A stretch of DNA of 64,000 bases. Origin: Klebsormidium nitens (taxonomy: Eukaryota > Plantae > Klebsormidiophyceae). The DNA is taken from the NCBI GenBank assembly GCA_000708835.1, contig DF237153.1, positions 1 to 64,000 of the forward strand. The letters run 5' to 3'. The notes under the pieces were generated by a model that did no database searches, had not been told where the DNA came from, and was given only the letters and a program-made list of their open reading frames with translations. This document shows, in pieces, positions 17 to 27,485 of the stretch (position 1 is the first letter of the stretch; the number at the start of each line of letters is the position of its first letter). The translations under genes were made by a program, and so were the position numbers.

Positions 17-2502
17 TTGAGTTTCTCCACGGAGAAGGAGCCCGGGACAAACATCCTGCGGCAGGCCATCGATAGACTCCGTGAGACGCATGGGCAGCAA
101 TACGAGGCAGTCGAGGCTGACGGTCCTCGCCTGCGAGAGTTCCGCGACCAGCGGCTCCATGACATGAGGAAGTTCATCGCCCGCATCCTGCTGGCGTTTG
201 CTTTGGGCCTCCGCGAGTATCTCAGGCAGCACAGAGACAAAGCCAGCCCCAAGGGCTTCCTCCTATTCCAGCTCATCGGCATCAGTGCACAGGAGGTGAG
301 GACTGCTTGTTTCTGGGGAGATTAGCTTCTTGGGGCAGGGGTTCAGACATCAAACGATGCTAGTCCCTTTGCTCCTGCAATAGCTTCTGAAGTTTGACCT
401 TGTTCTCGCACTTTCTCCCCTCCGCAGTCTGCATTGTAGCATCTCATTGCCATCACCTTCTTTGCTGCTCCAGAGTCGCTCATGGGCGTCTGTTGTATTT
501 TCAGGACTGGCTGCTGACGACTTGGGGTTGCCTGCTGAGCGTGTCGCGGGAGGCGGTGGAGCAGAAGCTGCAAGCGACGGTAGAGGAGCTGCGAAGGCTG
601 ACCAATCAGGACTTCTTCAACACCTTCCTGGATGAGGCGCAAGCCGGGATGCGGATGATGGACGGGTACTTTCCGAGCCGTGACGGGATGGAGGGGCGGC
701 CGTTGCTGAACGGCTTGGTTCGGAGCCTGCATCATAACATCTTCACGCACTTTCACTTCAACCTGCCGGGTTCGTCCTGGAAAAACCAGTCAGCCCCCAT
801 GGCAGGTTGACGCTCTTTGGCACTCATCTGCTTGATATCGCTCAGCGCATATCAGCCCTCTGTCTGCAGCGCAGTAATTCTTGGACCTTGCCAATTGTCT
901 TCGAAGTCAGTCTTTATATGCAGGCCGTCCAGCAGTCACTGATCTGGCCCTTCTTGCTTGAGTGCAACTCGCATCCTCCGGGAGTTTCTCGGAGTAATGG
1001 GGTGCCTTTGGTTCGTGCAGGCACGGGACTCAGCCTCCGCCTGGCGCAGCAGCTCGATTCTGCCGTCGGTGAGATGGGTGCCGCTCAGCTAACGTCCTTC
1101 ACCGACTTCCCCCCCTTCACCACGGACGAAGCGCTCAAGTACGCCCGGGGGTTTCTGCAGAGCCCCCCAGAACGCGCCCAGGTGCACATCCTCGTGGGGC
1201 GTCCGCGATTCGCCGCGCAGCTCGTGCAGACGGTGCTCCTGGGTAAGTCCTGGGAGGAAGCGCTGCAGGCTNNNNNNNNNNNNNNNNNNNNTCGTTTTCT
1301 CCTGCTCCCAAGTCGCTCATGGCATCTGTTTGTGGTCCAGGACTGGCTGCTGAAGACCTGGGGCTGCCTGCTGAGCCTGTCACGGGAGGCGGTGGAGCTG
1401 AAGCTGCAAGCGACTATGGAGGAGCTGCGAAGGCGGACCAGACAGGACTTCTTCAACACCTTCCTGGATGAGTCGCAAGCCGGGATGCGGATCCTGGACG
1501 GGTACTTTCCGAGCCGTGACGGGACGGAGGGGCGGCCGTTGCTGAACGGCTTGGTTCGGAGCCTGCATCACAACATCTTCACGCACTTTCACTTCAACCT
1601 GACGGGTACGTCCTGGAAGAACCAGTCAGTTCCCATGGCAGGTCGACGCTCTTTGGCACTCATCTGCTTGATATCGCTCAGCGCATTTCAGCCCTCTGTC
1701 TGCAGCACCGCAATTCTCGGACCCTGCCAATTGCCTCTGAAGTTCTGTATTTTTATGCAGGTCGCCCAGCAGTCACCTGTCTTGNNNNNNNNNNNNNNNN
1801 NNNNCGGCCATGGGGGCCCTCTTCGAACGCATCATCCCCCAAGCGCAGCTTCGCTTCCTGACCAGCAGCTGTCTGGCAGATCATTCCTTGTTCAAGGGAT
1901 TAGTGGGCCTCCCCGACTGCTTCTACGGGCCCGCACGCGTGGTGTCTCTCTTTGGACAGGGTGAGAAGAGCTACGAGCTGAAGATCGACGACACCCCGTG
2001 CGTCGAGACGTGGAGGAAAGGGCGGGGCCTGCTTGAGTTCCTCCGCGAGCCGGGCGGAGTCCCCTTCTTCTTTCCAGAGGAAGGAGCTGGACCTGATCAC
2101 GCCTCGTACCTGAGAATCGGCGACGAGCGGTGGCTCGCCATCCTGCAAGCCAAGTGCCGCAAGAAGGTGCCAAACAAGGCACATGCTTTGGGCTCGCTCA
2201 ACATTCGGACCATGTACAGAGGCGTGAAGGAAGGTAAGCGAGAAGAGAAGCGCAGAGAGCTGACGTCTCTCCTCAAGCAGAGGGGCGTGAAGGGTATCCT
2301 GCGAATCCTCCTGGCGTACCCGGCAGAGGTCAACGCGGCCAGCTATACCCTGTCCACGCTTAGGCAGTCTGAGCGGCAGCGGCTCCAAGCAGAGGAGGGG
2401 AACGAATTCGAAGTCGTGCAGCTGTGCATCTCAAAGTCGAATGCGGAGCATTTCCTGACGGCCAATGAGCGGCGTCACCTGGATTGTCTCAAGGACGTTT
2501 GA
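17..2502 (+). CDS. Partial multi-exon Crinkler-like protein (P-loop NTPase-like region + C-terminal PD-(D/E)xK nuclease-like domain), interrupted by two 20-N gaps
   Basis: Coding blocks at about 17-295 (donor gt 296), 505-805 (acceptor ttttcag, donor gt 806), about 1020-1271, 1339-1640 and 1805-2502. Motifs FLDEAQ/FLDESQ (Walker B-like), RPLL, GTGLS and GRPRF, plus C-terminal GPD...ILQAK, resemble CR-NTPase + CR-REase architecture. The exon chain could not be fully resolved. Confidence 0.5.
470..1784 (+). repeat. Direct duplication of one exon plus following intron (about 470-950 and about 1305-1784)
   Basis: DWLLTTWGCLLSVSREAVEQKLQAT...HFHFNL and DWLLKTWGCLLSLSREAVELKLQAT...HFHFNL, with near-identical downstream intron. 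The second copy is bounded by N gaps on both sides. Confidence 0.85.
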
Positions 2503-5500
2503 TAGCGCAATGCATTGTGAAATCTCGCAAGGGGTTTGACGGCAATGGGGTCCGTTGCAAGTGGAAAGTAAAGAGGGTACAGATGGATTCGAGAGGACTT
2601 TTGGCTGGTTAGAAGATCTTCAAGGTTGGTGCCGAGTGCGAGGAGGGAGTGCACAAGGCAGTTCGACCAGCAAGAGGAGCCTGCTTCAACATTCTTGAGG
2701 GTGCCATTCTAGTGCTTCATTGTGCATACATATAAAGGAGCCGATTGGAGATTGAATTCAAACTCGCAATTGAAGGCCATGGAAGTTTGCAGCATTTGGA
2801 TTGCTGTACATGTTTGTGTCCTCAAGTGTGAACTCAAAATAGGCATGTGACACTTGCATGATATCGCATGACGAGCGAAGAAGAAAGGCCTCGGCATTGT
2901 CACAATTGTTGCGCAACGCGATTTGACTCTGCTCGATTCCCCACTTTTCTCGCTTTGGACGGATCTCATTTGCTAATCACTCCTTCCAATGCTCCGGTTG
3001 CAAGGCATTGCACACGGTTTTGAAGCTGAAAGTATTCACTTGCTACCCAACATTGCGCATCCCCGCCATTGAGACAGCTTTGGAAGCCTAGAAAATGGCA
3101 CTCATTGATAGCATCTCATGTCCGGCCCTTGGTCGCAAATCCAGTTTTGGAGGAAGATCATGCAAGTCCTCACGTGGTAAACCACCCAATCGGGCTCTTT
3201 AATTGACTGGAAAAATCACGTTGGATCTCTGTTTCCCGGCGTGCAATGTACATGTACTCTTCAGAGTGTCTCAATAGAGAAAGCGCAGCAACTTGAAATA
3301 CATGTTTCACGTTATAAAGCACAGCTGCTCTATTGTGCAAGGGTTTCCATCGGGATTCATACGATGGTTTGTCAAATAGCTGGGAAAGTAACATGCATGC
3401 TGCTGATCGCTCCACCGACCACTTATTCGAAGATCTTCTTCAAAGCCATCATTGGTGACTCGTAAGTCAGATAGTCTAAATGCAATTTTGAAGCTTCAAC
3501 TGACCCACCAACGCTGGCATACCTCTACGATTTCGTCTGTTCAGTATTTTGGCATGGATCGTGTGTGTTGGCTACATACAAACTGAAATTTCAAGCGAAG
3601 ACATTTGTGCGCAAGGGTTCTGGAGTTGCCAAAAAGGCCCGGCACAGAGCTGAGGGCCCGGCATTCACCATTACCGCGCTGTGGTGGACCGTTCCCACCC
3701 AGGTCCCAAGTTGGAGCAGAGCACTCCCTGGCCCTGGCCCTGGTAGCAAGCAGATGCCCCAAACTCGCGAAGGTTGAAAGGTCATTCACGTTGAACACTG
3801 TTGGAGATCAGCTCTATCAAGCTCGGTTCTTCAGAATTCCAAAGGTGACTGGGAGTTCAAGTCACGCGCGGTGACTCATAATCCGGGTCATCGGTACAGT
3901 GGCGCTGGCAAGGTCTGGCATCCTTTGGCGTCCTGCGGCGGAGCTTGAATCTGCTTGTTTTGCTGCCAGGTGTCCTTCTAGAAGCAAGAAACTGCTTTTC
4001 TAGGTCAGCAATAGGTCGGCAATCGGTGACCTGGCACACTTTACGGCGGCACCCGATGGCGCACTCTGGCTCACTTTGGCAGCTTAATGAGGGTGTTTTG
4101 ATGGGCTGCAATGGTCCTCAACTTCATTTCTCAGAAAAACAAAGGGTCCATTTCTGGAGGGAGCTCTCTGGGAAGCTCGGAAGCTGGCAATCTGTGGGCA
4201 GCGCGTCGTGCACGCAGGCGTCTGGTGATGCTCAGGTAAGAGCAGCTTGCCTTTCATTCTTTCTGACAATCCCGAGGGCCTGTGCTGTCTCCTTCAAGTG
4301 GATGTTTCTGGGTCTTTGTGTGCTTGCAAAAGGATGCTGTTGGGCATGCTGAAGCATGACCAGGCATGCCTATCTCATCAGCATCAGCGTGCAATTGTGT
4401 AAGCAATTAGCAACCCTAATCGCCTTGGCAAACCCAACAATACATCTTGCAGGCATGCATGCATGTGCATATTGTTTTATAACCTTGATGCAGGCTGATA
4501 GCTCAGCAACAGCAGAGTGTGTGGACAGCCGCACTGTGCATCAGCTTTCAAGGTAAGCCCTTGCGCCCAGGCTTCTGCGCGTCTGCAGCTGAGTGGCCTG
4601 CACGCCTGTTGGCTTGCAGGATTGTTTTCAAAAACAGGACTGCTTTCGGCTGATGGTTCAGCTAAATTCTCTCCTGTTAGCAATTCCTCGATCCTCTCCT
4701 TGACCAGCAATTGCTCGTCAATGTGTTTTTAAAACCTGGGGGATCCCTGAGTGTTGTCTGGTCATTTATTGCAACAGATGGCAGACACTACCATGCCACA
4801 ACAGCAAGGGCCGGCAGCCCCGCTGTTTGAGGGCAAGGAAGGCACCCCTTCTGTTGGATTACCGCCTTCCATCGGGGTGAGCTCATCAACGCTGATCTGT
4901 GCGTGCGAGGTCAGGCCATATGGAACAGATCAGTCAAAGCTCCGATTGAAGAGACCAATTGGAGTTTAATTACACAGACCAGCTGTTGCAGTTTGTGACC
5001 TCCTGCCAGGCACTTTCCTTGGTCCTTCTGCAGTCAACAAATGAAAGCTCTGACAAGTTGCATTGGCTTGGAGGCTCAGATGAATAATGCAGCTGGTGCA
5101 AACTGTTGGGCCTTGCCAGGCACTTTACGGGCCCTTCTATGTTTAGTAGAGCAAAGGTCTGAAGGGCTGACAATTTGCTTTGGGCTTGGAGGCTGGTGCA
5201 AACTGTCAGCTCCTGCCGCGCAATTTCCTGAGGTTCTTGTGAGATTCATGGCGCAATCTGCTGGACAAAATGCTAAGAATTTTGCCAGACACTCAGCCAG
5301 ACAGCAGCAGAGACACATGTGCCTTCGGTGATGTCATCGTAGGCTCTCTCTCTGCAGGGGGGGAATCAAGCAACAAAGGAAGCCACCCCGCGCTCATCTG
5401 GTGCTGCACCCAATTTGAGCAGCCCCTTGGTTCACCCCATGCATGAGGTGGTTCCTGGCGCAAACAGTGGCGCGGAGTCAAAAGCTGGGGTAAGGCCAGC

Positions 5501-5559
5501 ATCTTGGATGCAGCTTACGAGGCTCTTCAGGATCATGGGCAGAATGGCCAGGTTGACTG

Positions 5560-6895
5560 CAAGTCAGAATGTTAGCCGTGGAAGTCTGGAATGCTTATTT
5601 TCATGGAGCAAGTTTTGACTGCCCCCCAGCGCTGATCCGTACAACACTGTTAGGATCAGGGCTGGGGCGGGAGTCAATATTTCTGTCGTGAGAGTCAGGA
5701 ATGCTTATATTCATGGGGCAAGTTTTGACTGGCCCAGCGCTAGGCCTTACAGTACTGTTAGTACTAGGGCCAGGGCGGGAGTCATAATTTCTGACGTGGA
5801 AGTTTGGAATGCTTATACTTTGAAGGGAAGTTTTGACTGGCGGGCGCTGCCGCTCCAAGCATTCTTCAAGCTCGCTGTTAAAACGACTTGGAAGCTCTGG
5901 AAGTCAAAAGTTCTGTTGTGAAAATTTGGAATGCTTATATCACAGGTAAATTTTGACTGCCCCCAGCGCAGCCACTTGCAAAGGCATTTTCAATCAGGGC
6001 TGAGGCGAGAGTCAAAAGTTTTGCTGTGAAAGTCTAAAATGCTTATACTATGAAGGAAAGTTTTGACTGGTGGGCGATTCTACTCCAAGCGTTCTTCAGG
6101 ATCACGGTTTGGATTGGCTTAGCAGAAAATCCTGCCTTGAAACGCTTGAATGCTTAGATTCATGGGGCAAGTTTTGAGTGGCCCCAGCGCTAAGCCTTAC
6201 AGTACCTACTCTTAGATTTAGGGCCAGGGCTGGAGTCAAAAGTTCTGACGTAGAAGTCTGGAATGCTTTTACTTTGAAGGGAAGTTTCGACTGGTGGGCG
6301 CTGCCGCTCCAAGCGTTCTTCGAGCTCGCGGTTGGAATGGATTGGGAGCTCTTGAAGTCAAAAGTTCTGTCGTGAAAATCTGGAATGCTTATATCAACAG
6401 GTAAGATTTTGACTGCCCCAGCGCTGCCTCTCACAACGCATTCAGGATCAGGGCCGGAGTGGGAGTCCAAAGTTCTGTCGTTTGAGTCTGGAATGCTTAT
6501 ACTGTTGATGGAAGTTTTGACTGGTGGGCGCTGCCGCTCCAAGCGTTCTTCAGGATCCCATTCTGGATTGGTATACGAGCTGTGCGAGTCAAAAGTGTTG
6601 CCTTGAAAGGATTGAATGCTTATATTCATGGGGCAAGTTTTGACTGGCCCCAGCGCTAAGCCTTACAGTACTGTTAGTGCCAGGGCCAGGGTGAGAGTCA
6701 AAACTTCTGCCTTGAAAGGTTGGAATGCTTATGCTCACAAGGGAAGTTTTGACAGGTGGGCGCTGCCGCTCCAAGCGCCTGCAGGATCACTGTTGGATTG
6801 GCCTGGGGACATCTGGAAGTCAAAAGTTCTGTCTTGAAAGATTGGAATGCGTATACTAGCAAGGGAAGTTTTGACTGGTCAACTCCACCGGTCTC
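5560..6895 (+). repeat. Tandem array 1 of family-A palindromic box (about 12 units of 108-122 bp, higher-order a/b/a'/b spacers)
   Basis: Recurrent (G/A)AGTCAAAAGTTCTG...GGAATGCTTATA...GTTTTGACTG box. Spacers alternate between type a (cccagcgct...cagggc) and type b (gggcgctgccgctccaagc...). Confidence 0.95.
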
Positions 6896-7000
6896 AAAAT
6901 CCTTCAGCTCATGGGTTTGATGGTTTCAGCCCTGGTGTGATCTTGCTCGCGCTCTTTCGGGTTTCGCACTGCGGGTTTCTCATGCCCCTCGATTGACCCC

Positions 7001-9790
7001 TTGCACGACACGTGCGGCGCCCCCCGCGATGATGCTCTCCTGCCGTCAACCATCAGAGAGCTCGTGGCGAGCGCGGCCAGAGGCTTCCTCACCAACTCCA
7101 AGAGAGGCCACCGCATTTTCCAAAAGGTGGCGGGGACCCTGGGCCAGCGCGCTCAAGAGGAGCTCGGGTCTGCAGGCCTTCTCTGGTCGAAGGCTGCCTG
7201 GGATGGGAGCCTGCATGCCGCGATGGCAGCTCTCCAGTCACTGGCGGGCACTGTAGACGCTGGCTTGCAAGAGGGCTTCGAGAAGGTCTTGACATCGATC
7301 AGGCAGGCCCACATGGAGGGGCTCAAGCAGCGAGAGAGTTCGTCCAGCAGAGTCTGCNNNNNNNNNNNNNNNNNNNNNNNNNNNNNNNNNNNNNNNNNNN
7401 NNNNNNNNNNNNNNNNNNNNNNNNNNNNNNNNNNNNNNNNNNNNNNNNNNNNNNNNNNNNNNNNNNNNNNNNNNNNNNNNNNNNNNNNNNNNNNNNNNNN
7501 NNNNNNNNNNNNNNNNNNNNNNNNNNNNNNNNNNNNNNNNNNNNNNNNNNNNNNNNNNNNNNNNNNNNNNNNNNNNNNNNNNNNNNNNNNNNNNNNNNNN
7601 NNNNNNNNNNNNNNNNNNNNNNNNNNNNNNNNNNNNNNNNNNNNNNNNNNNNNNNNNNNNNNNNNNNNNNNNNNNNNNNNNNNNNNNNNNNNNNNNNNNN
7701 NNNNNNNNNNNNNNNNNNNNNNNNNNNNNNNNNNNNNNNNNNNNNNNNNNNNNNNNNNNNNNNNNNNNNNNNNNNNNNNNNNNNNNNNNNNNNNNNNNNN
7801 NNNNNNNNNNNNNNNNNNNNNNNNNNNNNNNNNNNNNNNNNNNNNNNNNNNNNNNNNNNNNNNNNNNNNNNNNNNNNNNNNNNTTGCAGCTTACAACGAT
7901 ACTTTTCAGCGAAGTGGGCTGTACTATAGTTCAGCGCCCAAGAGCAGACGCCTCACAGGTGAGAGGCTCATTGCTGACGCCCCAGAGGTCCAGCTTTGCG
8001 AGCTCTTGTGCTTTGCCCGAATCAGTTGCCTTCTTCGCCATTGATCCATAACATCCTTCCATCGCAAGCTACGCTCCGCGTCCTGCATCTGTTTCTAGAT
8101 TCCGAGGTGTGGTCTTTTTGCGAGCAGCAACGCTCCTGATCATTGGGGGGATCGAGCCCAATCCCGGCTGGGGGGGCGACGAGGTAAGCGATTATGCGGC
8201 TCAAGGCAGGACAACGCTGGGAAGCGACATCGACAGAGGGTGGCCACTCGTCCCACTGCCGTCACTGGAGGTGAGCGCGCGCACAATCGCCTTGCAGCAT
8301 CATCGAAGAGGATCCTTCCATGATTGCTGAGATCGCTTGCGTGCGAGCTGAGAAGCATGTCCAATCATGCCCAATCATGAGAAGCATGTCGTTTGCATGT
8401 TGGTGAGACGTGCGGCATCCCAGAACAAAAAAGGGCACAGATGAGGGAACCTGAGCTCAATATCATCGCCTTTCTGTGTTGTGCAGGAGGTTTACGGCAG
8501 TCCGCCGTCGCGCCAAGCCCAGAGCATGCATTCACAGTTCGAAGCGTGGAGGAGCCAAGCACGTTTGAGCGAGCAGGTGAGTTAGGAAGGTACATCACAT
8601 CGGACAGTTGCAACGAGATATTACTGATCTTTGCATCCTGACCCCAAACGTCTTCAGACTGGCACTGCTTTCAGCCTGGGAAAGAGATCATTGAAGTCGC
8701 TGAGTGTCCCTTGCATAGCTGTCTAGCGCAAGCCCTTGAGATTGGGCCGAAAATGATGGCAATCTGCATGTTGTAAGCAGCAATTAGGTCTCTTTCTCAA
8801 CTTGACTGTATCTAGTGGGTCACGTTCCAGCACTTTGTGAAAGCTCACGGCCTGGCTGGTTGCGGTCCGTGAAACACGTGTTGAGCGGCGCTAGTCGTCA
8901 CCTTTGCATCAGGTTTGCTTAGAACTGATCAGGAACCTCTCATCCTCTGTCCAGATAAGCGGCGGCAACCAGCGGTCGGCTACGAGTGCGGCCAGTGAGT
9001 CCGGGTCCGAGCTGTCGGATATGGAAGACGAAGGCGAGGACATTGAGGGGGCGGAGTTTGAGAGCGTGGACGAGCCTCAAGACGTGGGAACATCCAGGGA
9101 TCGCGCATTCATCGACGATGAAGACGCAAGCGAAGATGAAGAGAACGAGGTGATTGCGCAAGGCAGGTTTCGTGTTGCCAGAGGATCGAGCTCCGACTCG
9201 GATGTCCCTCTGCTTCTGGCTCGGCGCTTCAAGCCGCAGGCGCCGGGACGGGCGACCAAGGCGCTCCAAACAAGCCGCCGAGCCCGTTCTCCGCCCTCTT
9301 GGTCGAGAGCTTCGGCCGAGGAAGGCAGCCCTTCACAGGGCTTTTCCTCTACGGTGAGCGACGGGGGTTGGGCTGATCAGCAGCTGCCGCCCGCTACTGG
9401 TGGCCGCATCCTGCTGCAGCGCTCCGAGGAAGCCGCAATGGACACGGAGTCCGGGTCGGACGAGCTTCCGGGTTTCCGTAAGCGGCGGGTGCTTGATGGG
9501 GCAGCCCGCTCTCCACAAATCAGGCGGCGCCGTCGGGTGCTGCTCTCATCATCGGAGCCCTCGGGTGAGACCGGCAGCGTCTCGGCAAGGCGGAGCGGTG
9601 CTGCTGGGTCGGAAGAAGAGGTGCAGGAGAGGGGGGCCGATGAGCTCGTGCCCGGCGTCGGCGCCAGCTTCGACGGTTCGCCGGAGCCTGAAGACGACGG
9701 CAGCTTGGACGAGTCAGATTTTGGGGAGGAGTTTGCGACTCTGTGCGTGATCGAGCCGCGCCCGCGGCGAGCGACCATCAGTCGAGTGAG
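7001..9790 (+). CDS. Uncharacterised multi-exon protein with acidic/Ser-Arg low-complexity region (fragmentary, spans N gap)
   Basis: Open coding-like block 7001-7357. Short exons at about 8099-8183 (..GGIEPNPGWGGDE|gtaag) and about 8487-8577 (tgtgcag|EVYGSPP...SEQ|gtgag) join in phase 0 to the long ORF resuming at about 8956 (ISGGNQ...EDEGEDIEG...). No recognisable domain. Confidence 0.35.
7358..7883. other. Assembly gap (N run)
   Basis: Continuous N. Confidence 1.
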
Positions 9791-9877
9791 CACCATTAAT
9801 AGGGTTGTTCGCGCTCTTCGTCTGTCTCGGCTCTTCAAGGCCTCATTCACAGTGAGCAGATGTCTGTATCTGTTTGC

Positions 9878-11690
9878 CGAGTCAAAAGTTGTGCCATTGG
9901 AAGCTGATATGCGTATGGAAAGAGGCAACTTTTGACTGGTCGGCGATATTGTTAAGATACTTTTCAGCGGTTGAGGGGGATGTTCAGTGGTGGTCGGAGT
10001 CAAAATCTGGGGCTTTATGGGACGCAAGTGCTTATTATGAGAAGGATTTTTGCCTGCCAGGCGAAGCCATGTCTGCGAGCTTCTTCGGGGATGGTCCGGT
10101 TTGTTTCGGAGTCAAAACTTGGGGCCTTATGTGATGCGAGTGCTTATTATGAGAGGATTTTTGCCTGCCAGGCGAAGCCATGACTGCGAGGTTCTGCCGG
10201 GGATGGTCGGGTTTGTTTCGGAGTCAAAACTTGGGGCCTCAGGCGATGCTTATTATGAGAGGAATCTTTGACTGCCAGGGGACGACATTATTGCGAGATT
10301 CGGCTTGGGATGGTCGGGATTGATCTGGAGTCAAAAGTCGGGCCTTATGGGGATGCGAGAGCTTATTATTGAGAGGGATTTTGACCGCCATGGTACGCCA
10401 TGACTGCGAGATTCTGCTTGGGGTAGTCGGGATCGATCTGGAGTCAAAAGTCGGGCCTTATGGGGATGCGAGTGCTTAATATTGAGAGGGACTTTTGACC
10501 ACCAGGGGAAGCCATGATTGCGAGATTCTGCTTGGGATGGTCGGGCTTGGTTTGGAGTCAAAAGTCGGGCCTTGTGGGATGCGAGTGCTTATTATGAGAG
10601 GAGTTTTTGACTGCTAGGCGGCGCCAGCAACTTTGGAATGGTCGAGCCGGTTCCGGAGTCAAAGGTTGGGCCTTATGTGATGCGAGAGCTTCTTATTGAG
10701 AGGGACTTTTGACTGCCAGGGGACGCCATGTCTGCGAGATTCTGCCCGGGATGGTCGGGCTTGTTCCGGAGTCAAAGTTGGGGCCTTATGTGATGCGAGT
10801 GCTTATAATAAAAGGGACTTTTTTGACTGCCAGGCGGCGCCAGCAACTTGGAATGGTCGGGCTCGTTCCGGAGTCAAAAGCTGGGCCTTATGTGATGCGA
10901 GTGCTTATTATGAAAGGGGATTTTGACTGCCAGGCGGTGCCATGACTGCGAGGTTCTGCCTGGGATGGTCGGGCTTGTTTGGGAGTCAAAAAGTTGGGGA
11001 GTTAAGTGATGCGAGTGCTTTTAAAAAGGGTAATTTTGACTGCCAGGCAACGCCATGACTGCAAGATTCTGCCCGGGATGGTCGGTCTCGTTCCGGAGTC
11101 AAAAGTTGGGGCTTAATGGGATACGAGTGCTTATTATGAGCGGAATTTCCGACTGCCAGGCGACGCCACGGCTGCGAGGTTTGGACCGGGATGGTCGGTC
11201 TTGTTCCGAAGTCAAAACCTGGGGCTTTATGTGATGCGAGTGCTTATTATGAGCGGGATTTTTTGACTGCCAAGCGGACGCCAGTTCCAGGTTCGAACAG
11301 CTCGACCAGTCAAAACTTCCCTTCATAAGCATTGCAGCTTTCTTCGGCGGAACTTTTGACTCGCCGCCAAGCTCGGCCATACCTTGTCGTTTGTGAAATT
11401 CGGCGACTGACAGCAACGACCATTCAAAACTTCCCCTTAGAGTATAAGCATTGCTGCTTTCCACGGCGGAACTTTTGACTTACAGAGATGGTCGGTCGGG
11501 TTTTAAAGTCAAAGCTTTGGGTTTTATGCGCTTCACGGTGCTTGTCTATAAAAGCCACATTTGACTGCCGGGCGGCGCCATCAACTTCCAGTTTCTGGCA
11601 GGCTTGTTCGAAAGTCAAAAGTAGGGCCCTGTTCACGAAGGGCGTGCTAATTTCAAGAGGAATTTTTGATTGCTGCGCTGCGGCTAACGC
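9878..11690 (+). repeat. Tandem array 2 of family-A palindromic box (about 13 direct units of 100-115 bp, two inverted units at about 11290-11480, two further degenerate units)
   Basis: Consensus GAGTCAAAAGTTGGGGCCTTATGTGATGCGAGTGCTTATTATGAGAGGGATTTTTGACTGCCAGGCGACGCCATGACTGCGAGATTCTGCCCGGGATGGTCGGGCTTGTTCC. Unit starts near 9998, 10108, 10221, 10328, 10441, 10555, 10655, 10770, 10871, 10983, 11096 and 11210. Confidence 0.95.
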
Positions 11691-11716
11691 GTGCGCGCCT
11701 CGATGGATAGCTCTCA

Positions 11717-11971
11717 CTAAGCCCCCCGCCTTCTTGCTGCCTTGCAGGATCCGGCTCCCTTCACCAGCGACCCGCACCCCCCCACCCGACCCCGCTCTGC
11801 TGCTACGGAGGTGGTGAGTCCACTTGACGGACGCTTCTCGAAGGCCACATAAGGCAGCTCCAGGTCGTCTTGATAGCGGCGGTCGTGCACTGCTGCCAAG
11901 GTTGCGCTCTCCTCAGCAGTCAGGGGCCGAGACAGAGCAAAGCGGCCGGTGAACTTGGTGTCGTAGCCCAT
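11717..11971 (-). pseudogene. Truncated tandem duplicate of the 5' end of the 11985-12695 gene
   Basis: MGYDTKFTGRFALSRPLTAEESA is identical in both copies. Nucleotides about 11910-11974 closely match about 12637-12697, then the sequence diverges and stops. Confidence 0.7.
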
Positions 11972-11984
11972 GATTCGATGCCCT

Positions 11985-12695
11985 TCAAGAGTCAAAGCGT
12001 TTCCTTAAGTCTGTGTCCGTTGGTCGTAACTGCGTCGTCTGTGCGCCATTTGTCCCTAAACCCTTCATCCTCTTGCTGTCTTGCTGGAGACGGGCCTTTT
12101 CCACATCGACCCGCATCCTGCCGGCCAGCCTCGCTCCGGAGCGACAGAGGTCGCGCCTACGGTGAGTACAATAATTTCTCCTCGCCGTGTAGTCGAAGAA
12201 CGCCTCGTTTGGGTAGTCGTACGAATCGTCTCCGATGCACAATGCAATCGGTGGGGCCATCTTGACAAAAATCTGGTTGCCGTTTAACGTGATAGACCCC
12301 GTGTCGCCCGAAAGGTTGTCTTCCAAGGTGACCGTCCCGCTCAGTCGTACTCCCCATACTTCAAAGAAGTTGGAAATGAAATACTCGAGCCAGCTGACGT
12401 GGTTGTAGAAGGGGCCCTTCCCGTCCCAAACAAGAGCGCTCTTGTCATGCGAGACGGTCCAACGGCATTTGCATGATGGGAATTCCTTGAAGATGTGCCA
12501 TCCTTCCCCATTGCAGTAGGGGTCGACTCCCTCTCGCAATATCTTGATCGGGCGCTCCTGACCCGGAACCGCAGAGGGTAGCTTCAGACCATCCTCTGGG
12601 CGGTAGTCCTGAACAGCCTTGAGAATTGCGCTCTCCTCAGCGGTCAGAGGGCGTGACAGGGCAAAGCGGCCGGTGAACTTGGTATCGTAGCCCAT
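11985..12695 (-). CDS. Intronless hypothetical protein resembling a phage/bacterial/large-virus uncharacterised family
   Basis: 236-aa ORF with MGYxTxFxGxFxLxxPL N-terminus and CxW...LVWDGKGPFYNHVSWLEYFISNFFEVWGVRLSGTV core. Family resemblance is from recall, not a search. Confidence 0.6.
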   Translation of the reverse strand: MGYDTKFTGRFALSRPLTAEESAILKAVQDYRPEDGLKLPSAVPGQERPIKILREGVDPYCNGEGWHIFKEFPSCKCRWTVSHDKSALVWDGKGPFYNHVSWLEYFISNFFEVWGVRLSGTVTLEDNLSGDTGSITLNGNQIFVKMAPPIALCIGDDSYDYPNEAFFDYTARRNYCTHRRRDLCRSGARLAGRMRVDVEKARLQQDSKRMKGLGTNGAQTTQLRPTDTDLRKRFDS

Positions 12696-13503
12696 GATAT
12701 GTTGTCCTCCGGGGGCCGAAGCGTTCCCCTAAGCCCGTGCGATGCCCTCTCTCACTCGTTCGAGCGCTGTGCAGGAGGCTGTAGCCAGGACGAGGGCCGC
12801 CTCGAGCAGGGGGGACTCCCCAGCGCCCACTGGTTTTAAAGTACCGATCAGAAACCCGTTCGAAACGGTGAGCTACATCACAACTGGGGCGTGGCCACAT
12901 GTGCACTAGTCTGGAGCCGGCTGCGCTTGTGCGACTTTTGAGGGGCGGGAAGCAACAACTTCGATTCGTTTGAACATTGCACTTTGGAATCATGTTCTGA
13001 CTGTTTGGAGTGCCGGCCGTCGGTAGCGCAATCTGCGTAGGTGCGGGTGCTTCCATTCTTTCAGAGTCGGTCCACAGCTCGTAGCTCTTTGCAAAGAATC
13101 AACAATGTGTACAGCAACAATCGGGCTGGGATCACCAGTCGTAATCGATCCCCAAATCTAGGGTTCTCGTAGGCTCGCTTGTCACACTCATGTCATTACA
13201 TGTGCATGCGCAGGCTGGAGGCGATGCTCAGGATGCGCCTGGAGGTCTTCCCCGCCAGGGGGCTCGCCGAGCCTCATCCCGTGGACGGGGCTCCGATCGT
13301 GCAGGTAAGTGTCCATGTTCTATGACCAGTTCACGGAAAAGACTACTGCTCCGGCCGGATGATACTGGAAGCTCTTCCTCAACAATCCTGAAAAACATTG
13401 CTGTCCCGCTGACGAGATCGATCCGGTCAGGTTCTTTTGAAACGAGCAAGCACGCTGGACAAGAATGTGAAGTCTTGGTCCCTCCTCAGTACAGAGTCAA
13501 CAA

Positions 13504-13929
13504 CTAGTCTTCTCCGTAGTACCCTTTGAACTCGAACGGCTCGACTTCTTTGTCAAAGTCATCTAGACCGAAGCCTCCACGCTCTGCATTTAAGAGCAGG
13601 CTGACATACGGCTCGACCGAATTCTTGTGAAAGTCCTCAAAGCCACCATTCTCTGTGAATTCCTTCAAGAGAGCCGGCCAATCCACCCCACTCGGATCAC
13701 CGCATATGCCCATGCGCGATTGTCTTTGTGGCTGCTTCCAAGAAGAGCCTTGCCCTTTCACAAGTCTCTTGGTCGTTGCTGTCAAGCTTGAACACCTCTT
13801 GTACCAGCTCGGTCGTGATGGGCGTTCCCTTTGCAGAGTCCATCTTTGAGTCCTGAGGTCTGCCTTTTTTTGAAGGAACGTCCCCCTAAGTACTAGACGG
13901 AGCAGAGATTTGTCAACAAGGATCATCAA
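13504..13929 (-). CDS. Small hypothetical protein, GGFE-motif family copy 1
   Basis: DWPALLKEFTENGGFED matches the W-x6-F-x3-GGFE[DE] motif in ORFs at 20.5 kb and 32.8 kb. The start is uncertain. Confidence 0.55.
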   Translation of the reverse strand: MMILVDKSLLRLVLRGTFLQKKADLRTQRWTLQRERPSRPSWYKRCSSLTATTKRLVKGQGSSWKQPQRQSRMGICGDPSGVDWPALLKEFTENGGFEDFHKNSVEPYVSLLLNAERGGFGLDDFDKEVEPFEFKGYYGED

Positions 13930-14246
13930 AGACTGAGTCGGCTTTCAATTGCACCTTATCAAAGCTTGTCCTTGACCTGATGAAAGCGTTGGTCCGGCCG
14001 GGAAGCTAGAGTAGCCTTCTATTCATATACCACACCTCTTTTATCAGCGTCAACACCAAGGAGCCTTCACAGCTTTTGATTGCTGGTCAGCCCGCTCCCA
14101 GGCGGGATGGCCGTCGGTTTGCTCGTGAGTTGGAATGTCTGGACTTGGACAAGTCGCTAATTATAACACCAACAACGAGAAACACCTTTGGACCCGTTCG
14201 TTTGTTGTGCTTTGCTCACATGCTCTCCGACCGTTGCGCGCAGGAG

Positions 14247-17200
14247 ATGGAGATGGAGGAGATTCCAGAGGCAAACACCGTTGGGCAGGACACGACTGAG
14301 CCAGCTTCAAACGAGATTCAGGATTCCGCCGGCAGCCTGCTGGTGAGAACGTGCGCGACCTTGGAACAGCCCGCTGTCTTTTGCCTAAAGCGGCCACACG
14401 GCTTCCTGCTCAAGTCATTCTCTCGATTGCAAACATTGTGATTACAAGAGGCACTCGGCCCCTAATCTCCCTTTTGTGAACAATCACGGTCATTCAGATG
14501 CAAGCACGGTCTGACTACACGGGTCTCTTAGGCACATCTGCGAGGATTCCTTGAGATTGCTCTTGAGTCCAAATCCTCTGAAGAAATCCAAACGAGTCCC
14601 TGGGCTAGCTTCCAATTTGAAATGCATGTGCGGTTCAGTCATGCAGTCTGCTGACTGCTTCTCGAACATTCCACTCTGCAGAGGCACACGACGACCGTCT
14701 ACGGCCAGCAGTGGTTCAAGAGCAAGGAGACTCCGACCGGCCGGGGCCCCAAGGACCTCGCCGTGGCCTGGAAGACCCTCCACGGCCACGGCATTCTCGT
14801 CGCTGCTGACTCCGCGTCAGATTCCGCTGCCAAGATGTTCACCAGCTTCCAGGACGTTCCTGCCCTGCTGGTTTACTGCGCACGCCTCCGGGGCCGGAGC
14901 AAGCACCTGTACGAGTGCCTGCTCGAAGTGACCCCTTCGCTGCTCTACTACGACCTGGACTACTACGTGCCTTCGAACGTGTGCGCGGGGGACTCCGAGG
15001 ACGCGGTCGGGGCGCGGGACGCAGAGTTTGCTGAGCGGAAGCGGCACTTTGAGCGGCTCAGGGACGGGTTTCTGGAGGCGGTTCTGGGGGTGTCGAGAGA
15101 GGCGGTGCGGTTCGAGGAGAGCACTGCGCACGGAGGGGTCCCGGGGGGGTTCAAGTTCAGCGTTCATGGGGTGCTCAAGGGCTTCTACCTGGAGGACAGC
15201 CGAGCGCGGGGCCTGTTTGCAAAGGCATTCGAACAGTTCCTGAAGAACCCGCCCCCGCAGTTGGCGCGCAGCGCCGAGTTCGTCTGGACGGAGGATCAGC
15301 GGGGCCGCCCAAAGCTAATCTGGGACGGCACGGTCTACTCCAAGTTCCAGAACTGGCGCATGCTGCGGTCGAGCAAGAAGGGGAGCGACCGCGTCCTCGA
15401 GCCGAGCGAGGGCAGCTCGGAGCTCATTGTGGACCACCTGGCGGGGCTCTACTCGGCAGCGGCGCTGCAGTGCTGCGCCCGGCTAGACGTGGCGCGCCTC
15501 GAGGCGTACCTCCAGCAGCACGCGCCCACCCTGTCGCGGCCGCGGCGCCCAACGATGCGCGTGAGAGACGCGGGCCTCGCGGAAGATGGCGGGCAGAATC
15601 GGGCGGACCTGGGCGAGGAGGAGCAGCGCGTGCTGGTGGAGTGCTACCAGCAGGAGCACCCCGGCGCTACGCTCGCGCGCGTTCACGTGGTCGGCTCGGG
15701 GGTCTTCACGGTCCACTTCGACGTGCCAGAGCCCACGTGTCTCCTCGCCGGCCGTCCGCACACGTCCCCGGGCAACAACAACACGTACCTGCTCTACCGC
15801 CGAACCCGGCCGGGGGTGGCATTGTACAAGTGCCATTCCGCCACCTGCAGGTGAGCAACCACGGGCAACAGGGACCGCTTCAATCCGATTCCTATCTTCC
15901 AAACAACGATCCATGAAATACGTTTTAGGAGGCCCAAGGCTGGACGATAAGAATCAATCCGAATCGCCCGCGGTTTCTGCTTCTGGAACAGCTTCCGTCA
16001 CTAGCGTCGTGAGGTTCTGCAAGATACTTCAGGGTCGACAGTAGGATTCGTTTGGCACTCTGTAATGCTAGACTCTTGCAGCTGGCGGTGTATCAGTCAG
16101 TCAAACTCTGCCCTCATGATATAAGCGTTGCAGCTTCCAATGTTGAAACTTTTGACTCGCCGATAAGCCCGGCCATACCTCGTTCTTTTCGGTAATTCTG
16201 TGCTTAGCAGCGTGTACAAGTCGAAAGTCCCCTCGTAGTATAAGCTCTGCAGTTCTTTTATGGCGGAACTTTTGACTCGCAGCCAAGCCCAAACCCGGCC
16301 ATCCCTCGTCCTCCGTGAAACCTTGTGAATTACAGCGTCAACCAGTCAGAACTTCCCGTCAGATAATAAGCTCTGCAGCTTCTCACGGCAGGACTTTTTG
16401 ACTCGCAGCTAAGCCCGGCCATACCTCGTCGTTTCTGAAAATTCGTGGGTAACAGCGTCGACCAGTCAAAACCTCCCGTGAGAATATAAGTATTGCAGCT
16501 TTCCAGGTCGGAACTTTTGACTCGCCGCCAAGACCGGCCATCCGTCTGTCTGTCCGTGTGTGCTTAGGAGCTCAGACCAGTCAAAACCTCACGTCAGAAT
16601 ATAAGCATTGCAGATTTCCAGGTTGAAACTTTTGACTCGCTGACAAGCCCGGCCATACCTTGCCGTTCGGGATATTCAGGGACTAACGGCGCGGACCAGT
16701 CAAAACCCCCCGTCAGAGTATAACCATTGCCGCTTTCCCCGGCGGATTTTTTTGACTCACTGCAAAACCCGGCCATCCCTTCTGTTTGTGAATTCCCCTT
16801 CGAGCTAAAGTCTTCGCCCTCTCGTTTTGCAGCGGAGTTGCGCGTGTGCTCCATTTGGAGACAGAGCAAATCACGGGCTGGACGGAGGATTATGTCAAGG
16901 CGGACGGCATGCACCCGTATCCACTCTTCTCCCTCGATTCCCCTGCCAAGAAAACGACCCTCGTGTCAGCCAACAAGGGCATTGGGAAGTCGAAGGAGGG
17001 AAACGACTGGCTGGAGAGACTTCTGCAACGGTTTCCGTGTGCGACCTTCCTCATGGTCGCAGCCAACGTCACGCTCGCTCGGAAGTATGCGGAGGATACA
17101 CGGCGGTGCGGCGTCGCGGCCACGCTGTATCTCGATGTGCTTGGAAAGATCGAGGCGAACAGGGTCGTTGTTTGCGTAAACTCCCTCCCCAGACTGGCTG

Positions 17201-20019
17201 CGAATTTTGACGTGGTCATAATGGACGAGATGGACATGATCCTGTCCAACATGAACTCGGACGTCATGGCCCGGAAGAAGATGGTCTTCCTGGCGCTGGA
17301 AGGGGCGACGCGGCACGCCAAGGTCGTGCTCGGGATGGACGCGAACATCGGCAGCCCGCGGGTGATGCAGTGGCTGCACATGGTGCGGCCAGATGCTGCC
17401 TTGCACACAATCCGCAACCGTGGGGTGTACCCGGGAGCGCGGAAGGCCACGATCAAGTACATCCCTGCGACGGCGCGGTTCCAGAAGGACCCGTACGGCC
17501 CGGCGATTGCCGAGACGTTGGAGTCTCTCGCGAAAGGCGAGCACATCATAGTAAGTGTCTTCTCTCCTCCGACCCATCCTTGCGCAAGACCGAACGAGAC
17601 ATTCTGCCCCGCTCCTCGCTAAAAGAGCCTACGAAGAAGTGGACTCTGTGCTTCTAGATTGCGCTTGGTGAGCGCCTGCTCCACGTCCCCCTTGTTTTTT
17701 CAGATTGACGAGCAAGCCTTCACGCTAGATCTGTTTCGTTTTTCGAAGTGACTTCGTGCAAGCCTTTGCCAAGAAAGACGTCAAGGCCGCCCTACCTTTA
17801 TTGCCAGAATCAAAGTCAGCTGATATGGCGGAATCTGCCAAGTCTGATCTACGCTTTAGAGAAAGGAACATCAGGACAGTCCGCTCTTTCTGACCAAACT
17901 CATTGAAGGATTTCAGTCTGATGACGTGGCAGATTTCTTAAACGGAACCAATGGGCTGCTGCCACGTCAGCATAAGGAATTCTGATTGCTTCTGCACGAA
18001 TCTGATCTTGCTGGGTGGGTTTAAAGACGTTAAGACTGCCCCTCGGAATCTGTCCTGGTGGGCTTAGATGAGCGCTTTTATCTAGTGACGTGGCAGCTTT
18101 TCGAAGTGAAGAGGCCGTCACGTCAGCAGAAATGAGTCTTCGTCAAAGTTAAATGCAAGTCTGAACACAGACGCTTTGTTTGGACCAAGAATCGGGCCAC
18201 CGATGCTAACGCCCGTGGGTGCCCCGTGGTTCCATTCCATTCCGTCCAATTCTGTTGGAACAGACATCTGAATTCGCCGTTTATCTTTTTGCAGGCGCCT
18301 TCGTCCAGCAAGACGTACGTCCTGAAGCTCGAGGAAGCCTTCAAGCAGCGGTTCCCAAGCGACGGCCCGACTGCCAAGTCAGGGAAGTTCTTCTACTCCA
18401 AATCTACGACGAAAGCGGCGAAAGCCGCTCTCGAGCTGGCGGTCACCGACCCCGACACCCACATGACGGCAGACCTGTGCGCCTCCTCCCCCGTGATCGG
18501 CCCCGGCATCTCGCGAGAGCGGCCCCACTTCGACAGGCTCATCGCTTTCGCCTTGAACAGCTTCGAGCGGGGGCCGACCGTCGAGACCTTCCTCCAGCAG
18601 CTCTTCCGCGATCGTACGGTCACCGACTTTACAATCTACGTCAAGGAAGGCGCGGGCCCCCGGTCGCTTCCCTCGACCGTGGAGGACGTTTTCTGCGCGA
18701 TCGAAGACAACGATCGCGAGCTCGCCAAGCTCTTGGGCAGCACCGACCATCTGGATTTCCTGCTGGCCCCCTCCGGAACGCGGCCAGTCTGCAACAGGAA
18801 CTCCCCCGCCTGCGTCCTGTATGCGAACAACGTCCTCACGGTCGCCAACAGCTTCCGCAACTTCCCGGAGCTCCTGCGCGCAGACCTGATCAAGCAGGGG
18901 TTCGTCGTCCACGAGGAGTACCTGGGCAACGAAGCCCCCTCTTTTCAGGTGCGCAGAGTGGGTCCCAAAGACGATGACCAGGACCTCGCTGACGATATTT
19001 GGCGCGCCAGGTATGTGGTCGATGACAAGGCGTATTGCAACCTCCTCGAGAAGGATGAGATCGAGACCCTGGACGAAGTGGAGGTGCGGCAGAGACACAT
19101 CTACGAGTGCATCCGCAACGTGCACAAGGTGGATCCTCGTTGCGTTAACCACAACTACGAGGCGGTGCACTGCGGAAAGGAGCTCGTACCGTATCAGAAT
19201 TACATCAGGTGAGCGAAGAACGATACAGTAATCCAAGCAAGCTGCGGTTAGGTCGATCTGAGATCGTGCTCAGCCCTGTTCTTTGGAGGCTTCCGAACCG
19301 CTTGCGTGATGAATCTCGCTTTGAAGAATCGACGCTGCTTTCGATTGCCTCTTGGATCAGCACGTCATTCTTGGATCAGCTTTGCCGTGCTTTCTCTCTG
19401 CTTTAGAAAGGGGTGTCTTGTTGCTGTCGGCTTTAGATGTACGGGTGCATCCAGATGACCCTGCAAAGCTCCCCTGTACAGGTTCCAAACGACTCCGTTC
19501 CCCGACCTCATTGACGACCTCGCGAGAGCCCTGAAAGAACGCGACATGGAAGGCGTGACAAAGGATTACGTTGCTGACATGGGCGACATGTCGCTTCGAG
19601 TGCCTCCTGCGGTGATCGTTCTGGCGGAATTGATGGGGTGCGGGCCGGAGGATGTGGAGAGGTGCAAAGAGGATGGGTTTCCGGTCGAGGAGGATGCATT
19701 TCAAACGGTCCACGACACGTTGCTCGCGCAAACGCCCAAAGTGCTCAGCTTTATGCACAATTTCTACGGGATTGATCAGACGGCCGAAACTCTAACGGCG
19801 ACAATGAAGCGCAACGCCATCAAGAAGATTCTCCACATAGGCCTCGGGCTCAACCACATTCCCCCGAAGAAGTCGAACGGGAAGTTCGTAGCTGGCTGGC
19901 CCCACATCTTCAAGCCGCTGCTGTGGCAGGAGGTGCGAGAGAAGTACGGCCGACTGGTTGATTACCAGGCGACACAGACGGCGGAGGTTTGCAAGATAAC
20001 GCCCACAGATGCTTTATAA
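14247..20019 (+). CDS. Five-exon fusion: PrimPol-like archaeo-eukaryotic primase + C-H-C-C Zn finger + UL9/origin-binding-protein-type SF2 helicase
   Basis: Predicted exons 14247-14342, 14682-15850, 16833-17550, 18295-19208 and 19482-20019. All introns are GT-AG and keep the frame (phases 0,2,0,2). AEP motifs YYDLDY, FSVHG and WDGTVYSKFQNWRMLRSSK. Zn finger CLLAGRPH...YKCHSATC. Helicase SANKGIGKS (Walker A), VVCVNSLPRL...VVIMDEMD (Walker B), MDAN, HIIAPSSS, SSPVIGPGIS. Exon 1 is the least certain. Confidence 0.85.
16098..16800 (-). repeat. Tandem array 3 of family-A palindromic box (6 boxes, about 117-125 bp period), inside intron 15851-16832
   Basis: Plus-strand units ACCAGTCAAAAC...ATAAG(C/T)ATTGCAGCTTT...AACTTTTGACTCGC...AAGCCCGGCCATACC, i.e. 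the family-A box in reverse orientation. Confidence 0.95.
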
Positions 20020-20505
20020 GTGCTTCAGGAGGGGGCAGCATAAGTAGGTCTCTCGTGCAAAAGATATCAGTTATCTCTCTGTTCTGATTATTATGACAGA
20101 ATAGACATTCTTGTCTGAGAGTTATCTGTTCTGTCGACCCTAGTCTTCTTTATTGCTCAGAATTGAAACCGTTTTGTACCATAACAAGCCAGCCTAGTAC
20201 CCTTGCAAGTACAATGAATATTATAAACGAGGTTCCCCGACATCAAGACCAGACTACGATTCGGCATCATAGAATCGCCATGCTTGCATGACGCGCCCAT
20301 GGCCCGCAGTTTACAAAAGACTTTGGATGACATGGTATATGAAGCTGCCAATCTGCACGGGTTAGAAGGCTCTATTGTATGGCTTTCCGATGCGAATTGA
20401 CGGGCCGATCCATACCGCACTGCACTCGATGCACCTTGACAATACGATCAATTGCGTCTTTGAGATCTCCCGCCTCTCTGCCGCTTCTCGGTCTCCAACC
20501 GGCCT

Positions 20506-20865
20506 TCAATCCTTAGCGTCACACGAAAGGTAGTTGTACTTGTCCAGGAGGTGATTGAGTGACTCGACATCATGGTGCGGCTTGTTGAAGAAGCGTTTGT
20601 GATATTGGTGAAGGATATTGACACGAGACCGCTCTTCGAAACCTCCATGAGCCAGGAATGCCAGAAGAGCACCCGGCCAATCTATGTTGCCCACTTGTCG
20701 ACAGCTCCCGAAAGCGCGAAGATGACGGATCACAAAGGCGATGAGATTGTAGAGCTCCAAAGCGGTCTCAATCGCCCATGAGTCATCAGTATTCATCTCG
20801 AAAAGATGCTTCACGATCTCTCCGTCGCTAATGAAGCTCCAGTCAAAGCTGAGGTCGGACGCCAT
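20506..20865 (-). CDS. Small hypothetical protein, GGFE-motif family copy 2
   Basis: ATG at 20865 (MASDLSFDW...). Contains IDWPGALLAFLAHGGFEE. Confidence 0.55.
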   Translation of the reverse strand: MASDLSFDWSFISDGEIVKHLFEMNTDDSWAIETALELYNLIAFVIRHLRAFGSCRQVGNIDWPGALLAFLAHGGFEERSRVNILHQYHKRFFNKPHHDVESLNHLLDKYNYLSCDAKD

Positions 20866-21027
20866 GCTCAACAATTGGTTGGTTTTGGAGCAATTGCGTC
20901 TCCCTAAGTATGTCACTAATGGCCGGGCGTGACCACTTTTGCACGTTCTAGGTCGATTTTGCGTGTGGAAGTCACACTCGACATTCGTTGAATAGCATGC
21001 ACAGCGGAATCTAGCCACGGCCGTTAC

Positions 21028-21501
21028 TTGCCGCTTGAGCGAGGGTTCCGTACGTACTTAGGGAAAGAGATTGGGCTGATGATAGTATCAGATTTTCGGG
21101 CCCGTGCAATGGAAGAGCTTGCAGATGGACGCATCCGATGCCGAGCAGTTGGGGTGACCTTCGAAGGTCGTCGGAACCGGATTCGCATGCTTCGACCTGG
21201 TCAGGAGCTCATACTACGCAAGCATTTGATGGATGGATATAACGCACATGGCATCGGCATCTTCGCTCCTACGGAAGACTCGCCTCTGGGCTTTGTTGGG
21301 AAAGAGTTCAAATACCATAATGTTTTTGGCCCAATTCGGAGAGGGTTAGAGATGCAAGCACGAGTGCACCGCGTTAATTGGGGCCGCTATGGACAGTGTG
21401 GGTTTGAGGTGGAGATTCTTAACGATTCAAGCTCGAGTACAAGCTACAACCCTGCTTTGGACGACACGCTCTGCGAGATCATTAGAAGAGAGCGATCATA
21501 G
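21028..21501 (+). CDS. Stand-alone HIRAN-domain protein (degenerate)
   Basis: RAVGVTFEGRRNRIRMLRPGQELILRKHLMDGYNAHGIGIF...LGFVGKE follows the HIRAN pattern (vaGv.f.gr...l..G..l.L.rep.NpyD.nAi.v...lGyv). Probable ATG near 21109. Confidence 0.65.
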   Translation: MPLERGFRTYLGKEIGLMIVSDFRARAMEELADGRIRCRAVGVTFEGRRNRIRMLRPGQELILRKHLMDGYNAHGIGIFAPTEDSPLGFVGKEFKYHNVFGPIRRGLEMQARVHRVNWGRYGQCGFEVEILNDSSSSTSYNPALDDTLCEIIRRERS

Positions 21502-21582
21502 TTTGAAGGACGATTTGTCATCACCGCGGTAGTGCAACGGTTGCCATCATTTTTCTCTATAGACGATAGTTGAACAGATTGT

Positions 21583-22137: not shown

Positions 22138-22324
22138 CGGAATATATAAAAAAGCCCACTTTCCTATTTCTGTACACCGCTAGTCACATTATCTGGAGCT
22201 AGTAGCTTTTCGGCCGAAAAGTTACGACCCGTCTGGCTACGAAGCCGGCTTATACAAGCTTTTGTAACCAGAAAATTGACAAAAGCGACTTGGCATGTTG
22301 AATTCGTTCGACGATTTTTGAGAC

Positions 22325-23461: not shown

Positions 23462-23508
23462 CGGATATGCACATTTCTCAACTCGCTCAACGCCTCTGCG
23501 GGATTCTT

Positions 23509-23943: not shown

Positions 23944-23967
23944 TTTTACCTTGCGCTACACAAGGAC

Positions 23968-26809: not shown

Positions 26810-26879
26810 GAGGAAGAAGAGAAAAGCGCCGAAGAATTGGCCGCTAACGAGAAGGATTAAGAGTCGAAGGGTTAGATAT

Positions 26880-27370: not shown

Positions 27371-27485
27371 ATAAGGAATCCACACCATATGTGTAGAAAG
27401 CGTCCTTTCTGAGCTTCAAATGTTCACTCAGCTGCATGGATGTTCAAAATGGTGCGTAACAGAAAGAGATCAATTCAGAAGGACC

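Follow-up and report, generated by a model that had tools for sequence, protein, structure and literature searches.

A 64,000-nucleotide stretch of the alga Klebsormidium nitens (assembly GCA_000708835.1, contig DF237153.1, positions 1 to 64,000; hereafter the window) carries 35 units of a 59-bp DNA box, arranged in three arrays that lie in introns of a spliced gene family for a replicase with a PrimPol domain and a UL9-like helicase of superfamily 2 (SF2). The boxes are real, under selection and tied to this giant-virus-derived replicase gene; we infer their binder and their function. The box, here called family A, is a candidate, and very probably a true, protein-binding DNA site under selection in this element.

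A paired-arm box in three introns

The original prediction had described about 35 units with inverted arms roughly 40 bp apart around GCTTAT, in three arrays. A paired-arm scan of the window bore this out: it returned 35 units, and exact 8-bp arm pairs occurred 14 times in the window, compared with none in each of 100 dinucleotide shuffles. Each unit consists of an arm, AGTCAAAA, a gap with an internal GCTTAT core, and a facing arm, TTTTGACT; each arm sequence is present in 24 copies in the 64 kb, every one of them inside the arrays. The gap measures 41–44 bp in 33 of the 35 units (43 bp in 20), and the arm centres are 50–51 bp apart, which is about five helical turns. GCTTAT is exact in 24 units and its best match falls at box position 32–34 in 33, making it a fixed, off-centre and asymmetric core. 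The 14 columns of the core are 68% AT; the whole spacer between the arms is 41–49% GC, compared with 59–63% GC in the linkers.

Array 1 (5562–6876, forward strand) has 12 boxes with alternating linkers and a higher-order repeat of about 230 bp, in an intron at about 5490–7012. Array 2 (9998–11268, forward) has 12 boxes with a 113-bp period, in a predicted GT..AG intron at 9786–11747. A single box at 9880–9937 (forward) groups with the units of array 3, two array-3-type boxes at 11308–11480 (reverse) are inverted relative to array 2 inside the middle array, and two degenerate boxes follow at 11507–11671 (forward). Array 3 (16099–16757, reverse) has six boxes with a period of about 120 bp, in an intron at 15851–16832 between the PrimPol and helicase exons. 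Both orientations of the box are seen, array 3 running opposite to arrays 1 and 2, and the asymmetric core is sense to the transcript in two introns and antisense in the third. The claim that each array has its own spacer held in part: arrays 2 and 3 share the motif GG(G/T)ATGG(T/C)CGGGCT, 6 bp off the arm, and array-3-type units lie inside the middle array. The three arrays are therefore diverged subfamilies of one unit and not boxes set among unrelated spacers.

All three arrays are intronic and none is free-standing; arrays 1, 2 and 3 fill 86%, 91% and 67% of their introns, respectively. Runs X5 and X6 are taken as RNA from their GT..AG joints. Array 1 is spliced out (5490>7012) in contigs of two RNA-like runs, with variant copies as the intervening letters, and is also skipped by gene model P0003; the window copy lacks an AG at the acceptor that the spliced contigs use. 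At array 2, both RNA-like runs have contigs that connect 9783 with 13262 across unknown letters, and the exon downstream of the array resembles, by eye, that of paralog P0005. A contig of run X5, which differs at 4 of 1,393 letters, skips array 3 at a GT..AG joint (15845>16828).

Selection on the DNA of the box

Mismatches to the array majority, counted in 30 regular units of the 35, amount to 22 of 480 positions in the arms and 8 of 180 in the core, compared with 748 of 2,718 in other columns. In a set of 30 units that omits the five most degenerate, a choice that favours conservation, identity between arrays is 0.92 for the arms, 0.92 for the core and 0.43 for the remaining box. Corrected for the tree of these 30 units, changes per A/T column number 1.3 in arms and core and 4.5 elsewhere; per G/C column they number 0.5 and 5.7. 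Because this conservation is seen in A/T and G/C columns alike, it is not due to base composition. Insertions and deletions avoid the box, the length of which has a standard deviation of 0.5–1.8 compared with 3.2–6.1 for the linker. Units group by array in the tree, indicating that the arrays expanded locally from founders.

The arms do not covary (score 0.094, matched or beaten by 180 of 500 shuffles), the boxes have no consensus RNA fold and Rfam returned no match for them. With the core present in both transcript senses, this places the constraint on DNA sequence and spacing, and an RNA hairpin, a snoRNA-like element or another structured RNA is rejected. A miniature inverted-repeat transposable element was rejected on unit flanks without target-site duplication, an integron attC-like site on arms that do not fit the attC core and on linkers that are repeats rather than cassettes, and a CRISPR-like array on its homologous linkers.

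Nor are the boxes an abundant satellite, which the original prediction had named as its counter-case. Summed contig depth, a rough measure that registers only copies at least 80% alike, was read from DNA run X1, from which the assembly may stem. It is 20 over the single-copy DNA beyond 35.4 kb, 37–82 in array bins and 44–80 in exon bins; at only 2–4 times single copy, array depth tracks the gene, and no satellite is seen at a likeness of at least 80%. Joints inside arrays 1 and 3 reveal variant array copies elsewhere in the genome, and one X6 contig has a box directly before an exon homologous to that at 7067, a hint that box and gene co-occur in another copy. A box pattern that matches 8 of the 35 window units had no match in viral contigs and 14 lone matches, none in an array, in metagenome contigs, which we take as chance.

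A PrimPol–UL9 gene family with a 2A-like motif

KFL_002040020 (4101–9788, forward), the exons of which match gene model P0003, encodes the N-terminal half of the family architecture, which comprises a helical domain, a 2A-like motif, an acidic linker and, in paralogs, a Cys/His cluster. KFL_002040040 (13233–20019, forward) encodes an intact replicase of 1,169 amino acids, comprising PrimPol, the UL9-like SF2 helicase and a predicted winged-helix-like C-terminal domain; its spliced open reading frame (ORF) is open across six exons (1,176 codons). A diverged paralog, P0204 (KFL_001380210; 2,047 amino acids), has both halves in one gene model, in the order zinc-finger-like N terminus, 2A-like motif, PrimPol, UL9-like helicase and winged-helix-like end. 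Its residues 129–449 align with the left gene family (39–54% match) and its residues 965–2046 with the replicase (41% match). As this paralog joins both halves, the three arrays sit in one ancestral gene.

In the window copy, the left exons and the replicase exons have no open frame across their join. The gene halves are parted here by a rearranged insert (11714–12739), in which lie an ORF on the antisense strand, a partial direct duplication and the 11748 exon copied in inverted orientation; the antisense ORF has no family assignment, and X1 depth over the insert is 206, above its flanks. A joint in DNA run X1 and also in X6 (7214>14659) connects the N-terminal exon to the PrimPol exon across unknown letters, and marks a further member of the family that differs in its middle part.

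The 2A-like motif (8145–8171, forward) reads GGIEPNPG-W in the window and GG(I/V)ESNPG-P in paralogs P0006 and P0204. Measured against the canonical GD(V/I)ExNPGP, as given in the part of PMC3708506 consulted, all copies seen have G in place of D; the last residue is P in P0006 and P0204 and W in P0003, P0005 and P0007. This spliced family of nuclear algal genes has a 2A/StopGo-like motif that separates the N-terminal module from the replicase. The N-terminal domain is conserved in six K. nitens proteins, and comparison with Pfam, the Atlas and the PDB gave no family or fold for it. Searches of viral contigs with P0012, P0035 and P0036 found no relative.

The replicase matched Herpes_ori_bp (PF02399) at E 5e-12. 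The family profile matched the origin-binding protein (OBP) of HSV-1 (herpes simplex virus 1) at E 8e-46 and human PrimPol at E 1e-10, the window exon alone reaching only E 0.19 against PrimPol. A representative library held 165 relatives, many of them proteins of 1,000–1,300 amino acids. The structural model of P0001, a 94%-alike transcript product (predicted local distance difference test (pLDDT) 86), had HSV-1 OBP as its top PDB match (Foldseek E 3e-10; Z 16.9, 408 aligned residues, root-mean-square deviation 13.9, range up to OBP residue 813), and its best named viral matches were origin-binding proteins of Nucleocytoviricota (E 9e-21). Folded alone (pLDDT 73), the last exon gave weak matches, mainly to winged-helix DNA-binding domains; OBP residues 634–805 ranked third of 48,161 (Z 3.9, root-mean-square deviation 4.4, 102 aligned). 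The pair R110-N111, located where a predicted helix starts, does not vary among the 8 aligned C termini and is loosely like RVKNL of OBP, which itself is not present as such. Together, the winged-helix-type matches of the model and the invariant residue pair make a DNA-binding role of the C-terminal domain plausible.

A candidate binder and a candidate mode of action

The geometry of the box, with inverted half-sites separated by about five turns and a core at a fixed off-centre position, implies two proteins in symmetric arrangement, together with either a third contact or a melting site. We tentatively favour the gene's own PrimPol–UL9 protein as the candidate binder, with the boxes serving as origin-like, possibly enhancer-like, arrays. 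Each arm, as the half-site AGTCAAAA(G/C)TT, would be read by the winged-helix-like C-terminal domain, and two protein units on the same helix face would flank the AT-richer GCTTAT core. The helicase would open this core and the fused PrimPol would prime synthesis, the element copying itself using host polymerases. Tandem duplication would have increased site density, and introns would have offered places for array growth without breaking the ORF.

The proposal that the sites are linked to a UL9-like protein is supported in part. The DNA site is under selection, is independent of orientation and is physically tied to a PrimPol–UL9 gene, three introns of which the arrays fill; depth follows this gene, the closest solved structure to its protein is HSV-1 OBP, and the protein has a predicted winged-helix-like end. 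The hallmarks of oriS are present only in part. In oriS, as outlined in the sections of PMC12543377 consulted, inverted boxes flank a spacer that is AT-rich, and OBP, the solved relative of the algal protein, acts there in the manner proposed here. The boxes here resemble it in their inversion and their constrained distance, and in the neighbouring gene, which encodes a UL9-family SF2 helicase with a model closest to OBP; their spacer is AT-richer at the core only. They differ in number (35 tandem units versus one origin) and in sequence, no Box 3 hairpin is seen in them, and the protein carries a PrimPol fusion, as its giant-virus counterparts do, and comes from an intron-rich nuclear gene of an alga. 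In baculoviruses, arrays of dyad units are origins and enhancers, and the activity of homologous regions (hrs) scales with palindrome number, according to the portion of PMC4535591 consulted. The likeness to hrs extends to several dispersed arrays and a repeated unit of imperfect dyad symmetry; unlike in hrs, the arms are about 43 bp apart with no continuous 24-bp palindrome, the arrays are intronic in algal nuclear DNA, and no viral genome or IE1 homologue was identified. The closest named structural relatives are primase–UL9 proteins of Nucleocytoviricota (Pyramimonas orientalis virus, Bodo saltans virus, Marseillevirus and African swine fever virus), which share the PrimPol–helicase layout of about 1,000–1,300 amino acids. 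The algal gene, by contrast, is intronised and extended by the N-terminal module and 2A-like motif, and no giant-virus hallmark genes were found in the window.

Several observations weigh against binding by the PrimPol–UL9 protein at origin-like arrays. Sequence likeness to UL9 is limited to the helicase (Pfam positions 46–218 of 820). The match of the last exon to OBP is weak, its Z of 3.9 being tied with unrelated winged helices, and the last-exon model had no Foldseek match at E ≤ 0.001. Exact arms occur in none of the ten other introns of the gene unit; HSV Box 1, GTTCGCAC (Table 1 of PMC12543377, a source consulted in part), is absent from both strands of the window; and the spacer, at 41–49% GC, is less AT-rich than that of oriS. 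No integrase is encoded in the gene; that it is mobile is a judgement from copy number, for which contig depth is a coarse gauge. As the units share descent, p-values are too small and independence is overstated. Paired-arm arrays are, moreover, not exclusive to the replicase gene, because a second family (B) with the same layout and linker motif adjoins the ORF of a KDZ-like transposase.

A bolder reading, possible but rather unlikely, is an undescribed type of self-replicating eukaryotic element. Its single spliced gene, derived from giant viruses, would encode a polyprotein (a regulator, a 2A-like skip site, PrimPol and a UL9-like helicase) and would carry its own origins as tandem intronic arrays. 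On this reading, the recognition sequence of a Nucleocytoviricota-type origin-binding protein would be described for the first time in this box, and every diverged paralog would possess a box family of its own, B being another.

Alternative explanations

The boxes could instead be anti-silencing or activator sites of the VANDAL/VANC or TnpA kind, bound by the N-terminal product and keeping the element transcribed in methylated chromatin; we consider this unlikely. The binder would be this small product, made up of the helical domain and the Cys/His cluster, and the 2A-like motif may be where it is set free. VANC motifs build up as tandem repeats in introns and upstream of their own element (PMC5735166, in the portion consulted), and the VANDAL/VANC and Spm/TnpA systems, as far as that source and bioRxiv 10.64898/2026.08.24.746577 were consulted, share with the present arrays the tandem-duplicated motifs in mobile-element introns, array-specific divergence and dense clusters. 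Silent transposons of K. nitens carry CHG/CHH methylation according to the part of PMC5890265 seen, the gene is spliced in the RNA-like runs, and the retention of the N-terminal domain in the six K. nitens proteins also fits. In run X8, C>T and G>A changes are in excess over window positions 2500–22400 (431 and 454 places, compared with 9–36 for other changes), and most X8 contigs are still 90–99% alike, which fits a conversion library over methylated DNA, although we infer the nature of X8. However, VANC motifs are single 8–9-bp words in one orientation and not inverted pairs at a fixed distance, whereas the site here is a three-part one of 59 bp with fixed geometry. No Mutator/Spm transposase or VANC/TnpA homologue was found by Pfam among 26 window ORFs, and the proposed binding domain is the one without a family or fold assignment. 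The boxes would work like an oriS/hr or a VANC-type site, yet belong to none of those families.

Each arm had also been read as containing the WRKY W-box, TTGAC(C/T); it is present in 56 of the 70 arms but not in all. Host WRKY enhancer arrays captured by the element would account for these words, and orientation-independent intronic clusters suit enhancers. This explanation is improbable: the 59 kb outside the arrays contain 60 W-boxes of their own, the W-box covers 6 bp per arm and leaves the A-tract, the 43-bp gap and the GCTTAT core unexplained, and family B combines this layout with other arms.

Still less probable is that the boxes bind the KDZ transposase (or a partner) as displaced subterminal repeats of one composite element, a possibility raised in the original prediction and now weakened. 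Family A does lie in a block (2.5–35.4 kb) that is multi-copy throughout and also carries a recombinase-like ORF, a Prim-Pol/D5 gene and the KDZ-like transposase. Contigs span the stretch from the replicase to 21.4 kb and also link D5 with the 3′ end of the KDZ region. Families A and B are alike in layout and linker motif, the linker profile of arrays 2 and 3 having five matches in family B and two elsewhere in the 64 kb. However, family A is internal and intronic, 10–22 kb from the KDZ ORF and 18–30 kb from the right end of the block at about 35,414–35,444, the only end mapped. The subterminal place, between the KDZ 5′ end and that right end, is held by family B (32573–34930; paired-arm repeat TGTACCA..AAA / TTT..TGGTACA, 55–57 bp), which is far deeper (196–216, with local peaks above 1,000) and is the better candidate for KDZ subterminal sites. 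The arms of A and B differ. The longest word common to the two families measures 14 bp, a length that 13 of 300 control stretches attain as well. A terminal inverted repeat partner of the right end was not found in 1–32 kb.

Least probable is a neutral intronic minisatellite with apparent conservation from arm-to-arm conversion or low mutability: the grouping of units by array speaks for local amplification and variant array copies do occur in the genome, but A/T and G/C columns are both conserved, the non-palindromic core included, this holds between arrays only 43% alike at other positions, and indels avoid the box.

The surrounding block and neighbouring genes

To the right of the replicase, 20300–27400 forms an intron-free block. 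It includes an ORF at 21028–21501, which we take to be HIRAN-like in the face of no Pfam match, and an intronless recombinase-like ORF followed by a frameshifted Prim-Pol/D5 primase-helicase (together 22325–26809, forward), with Pfam matches to Prim-Pol and D5_N. We presume the former to be a tyrosine recombinase from motifs only; it had no Pfam or PDB match above the cut-off. The recombinase-like ORF has 23 relatives, including K. nitens models fused to D5, and an alignment search of viral contigs found none. Its stretch is single-copy and the replicase end is double. The KDZ-like transposase region (27489–32492, reverse) had no Pfam match; its ESM Atlas features are 0.96 to KDZ clusters, with recognition under the bar of the tool. 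Runs X5 and X6 have little or no cover over 20.8–32 kb, which we do not take as a sign of silence. The family-B pattern, like that of family A, had no match in viral contigs.

With the Plavaka giant repeats of Amoebidium and with KDZ transposons, as far as PMC11244446, PMC12730594 and PMC11343200 were consulted, the block shares its large size and multi-copy state, a transposase at one side and intron-poor recombinase-like cargo. It differs in its transposase, which is KDZ-like and not of the Plavaka kind, and in the spliced replicase gene with internal arrays; the left end, the two termini as such and a target duplication, which is 7–8 bp in KDZ transposons, were not found here.

Elsewhere in the window, positions 1–2500 contain a multi-copy gene, partly duplicated and interrupted by a gap. 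Its C terminus is presumably Crinkler-like, and it had no Pfam match. Two paralogous host genes, U-box/kinase-like by eye, occupy 39100–46700 and 54300–60750, the exon of the second at 55796–56509 being tandemly duplicated and decaying, and a 63-bp inverted repeat at 49894–51018 lies in two introns 1 kb apart.

Implications

No description of the gene family and its arrays was found in the literature searched, Repbase, subscription journals and supplements being outside that search. Giant-virus ‘replication origin-binding proteins’ are named by their similarity to UL9, and we know of no cognate origin for them. The algal gene unites a candidate binder with a candidate site, and 35 natural variants of the site define the bases and the spacing that matter. 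If the N-terminal product binds instead, anti-silencing of the VANDAL type would have arisen independently in the algae related to land plants.

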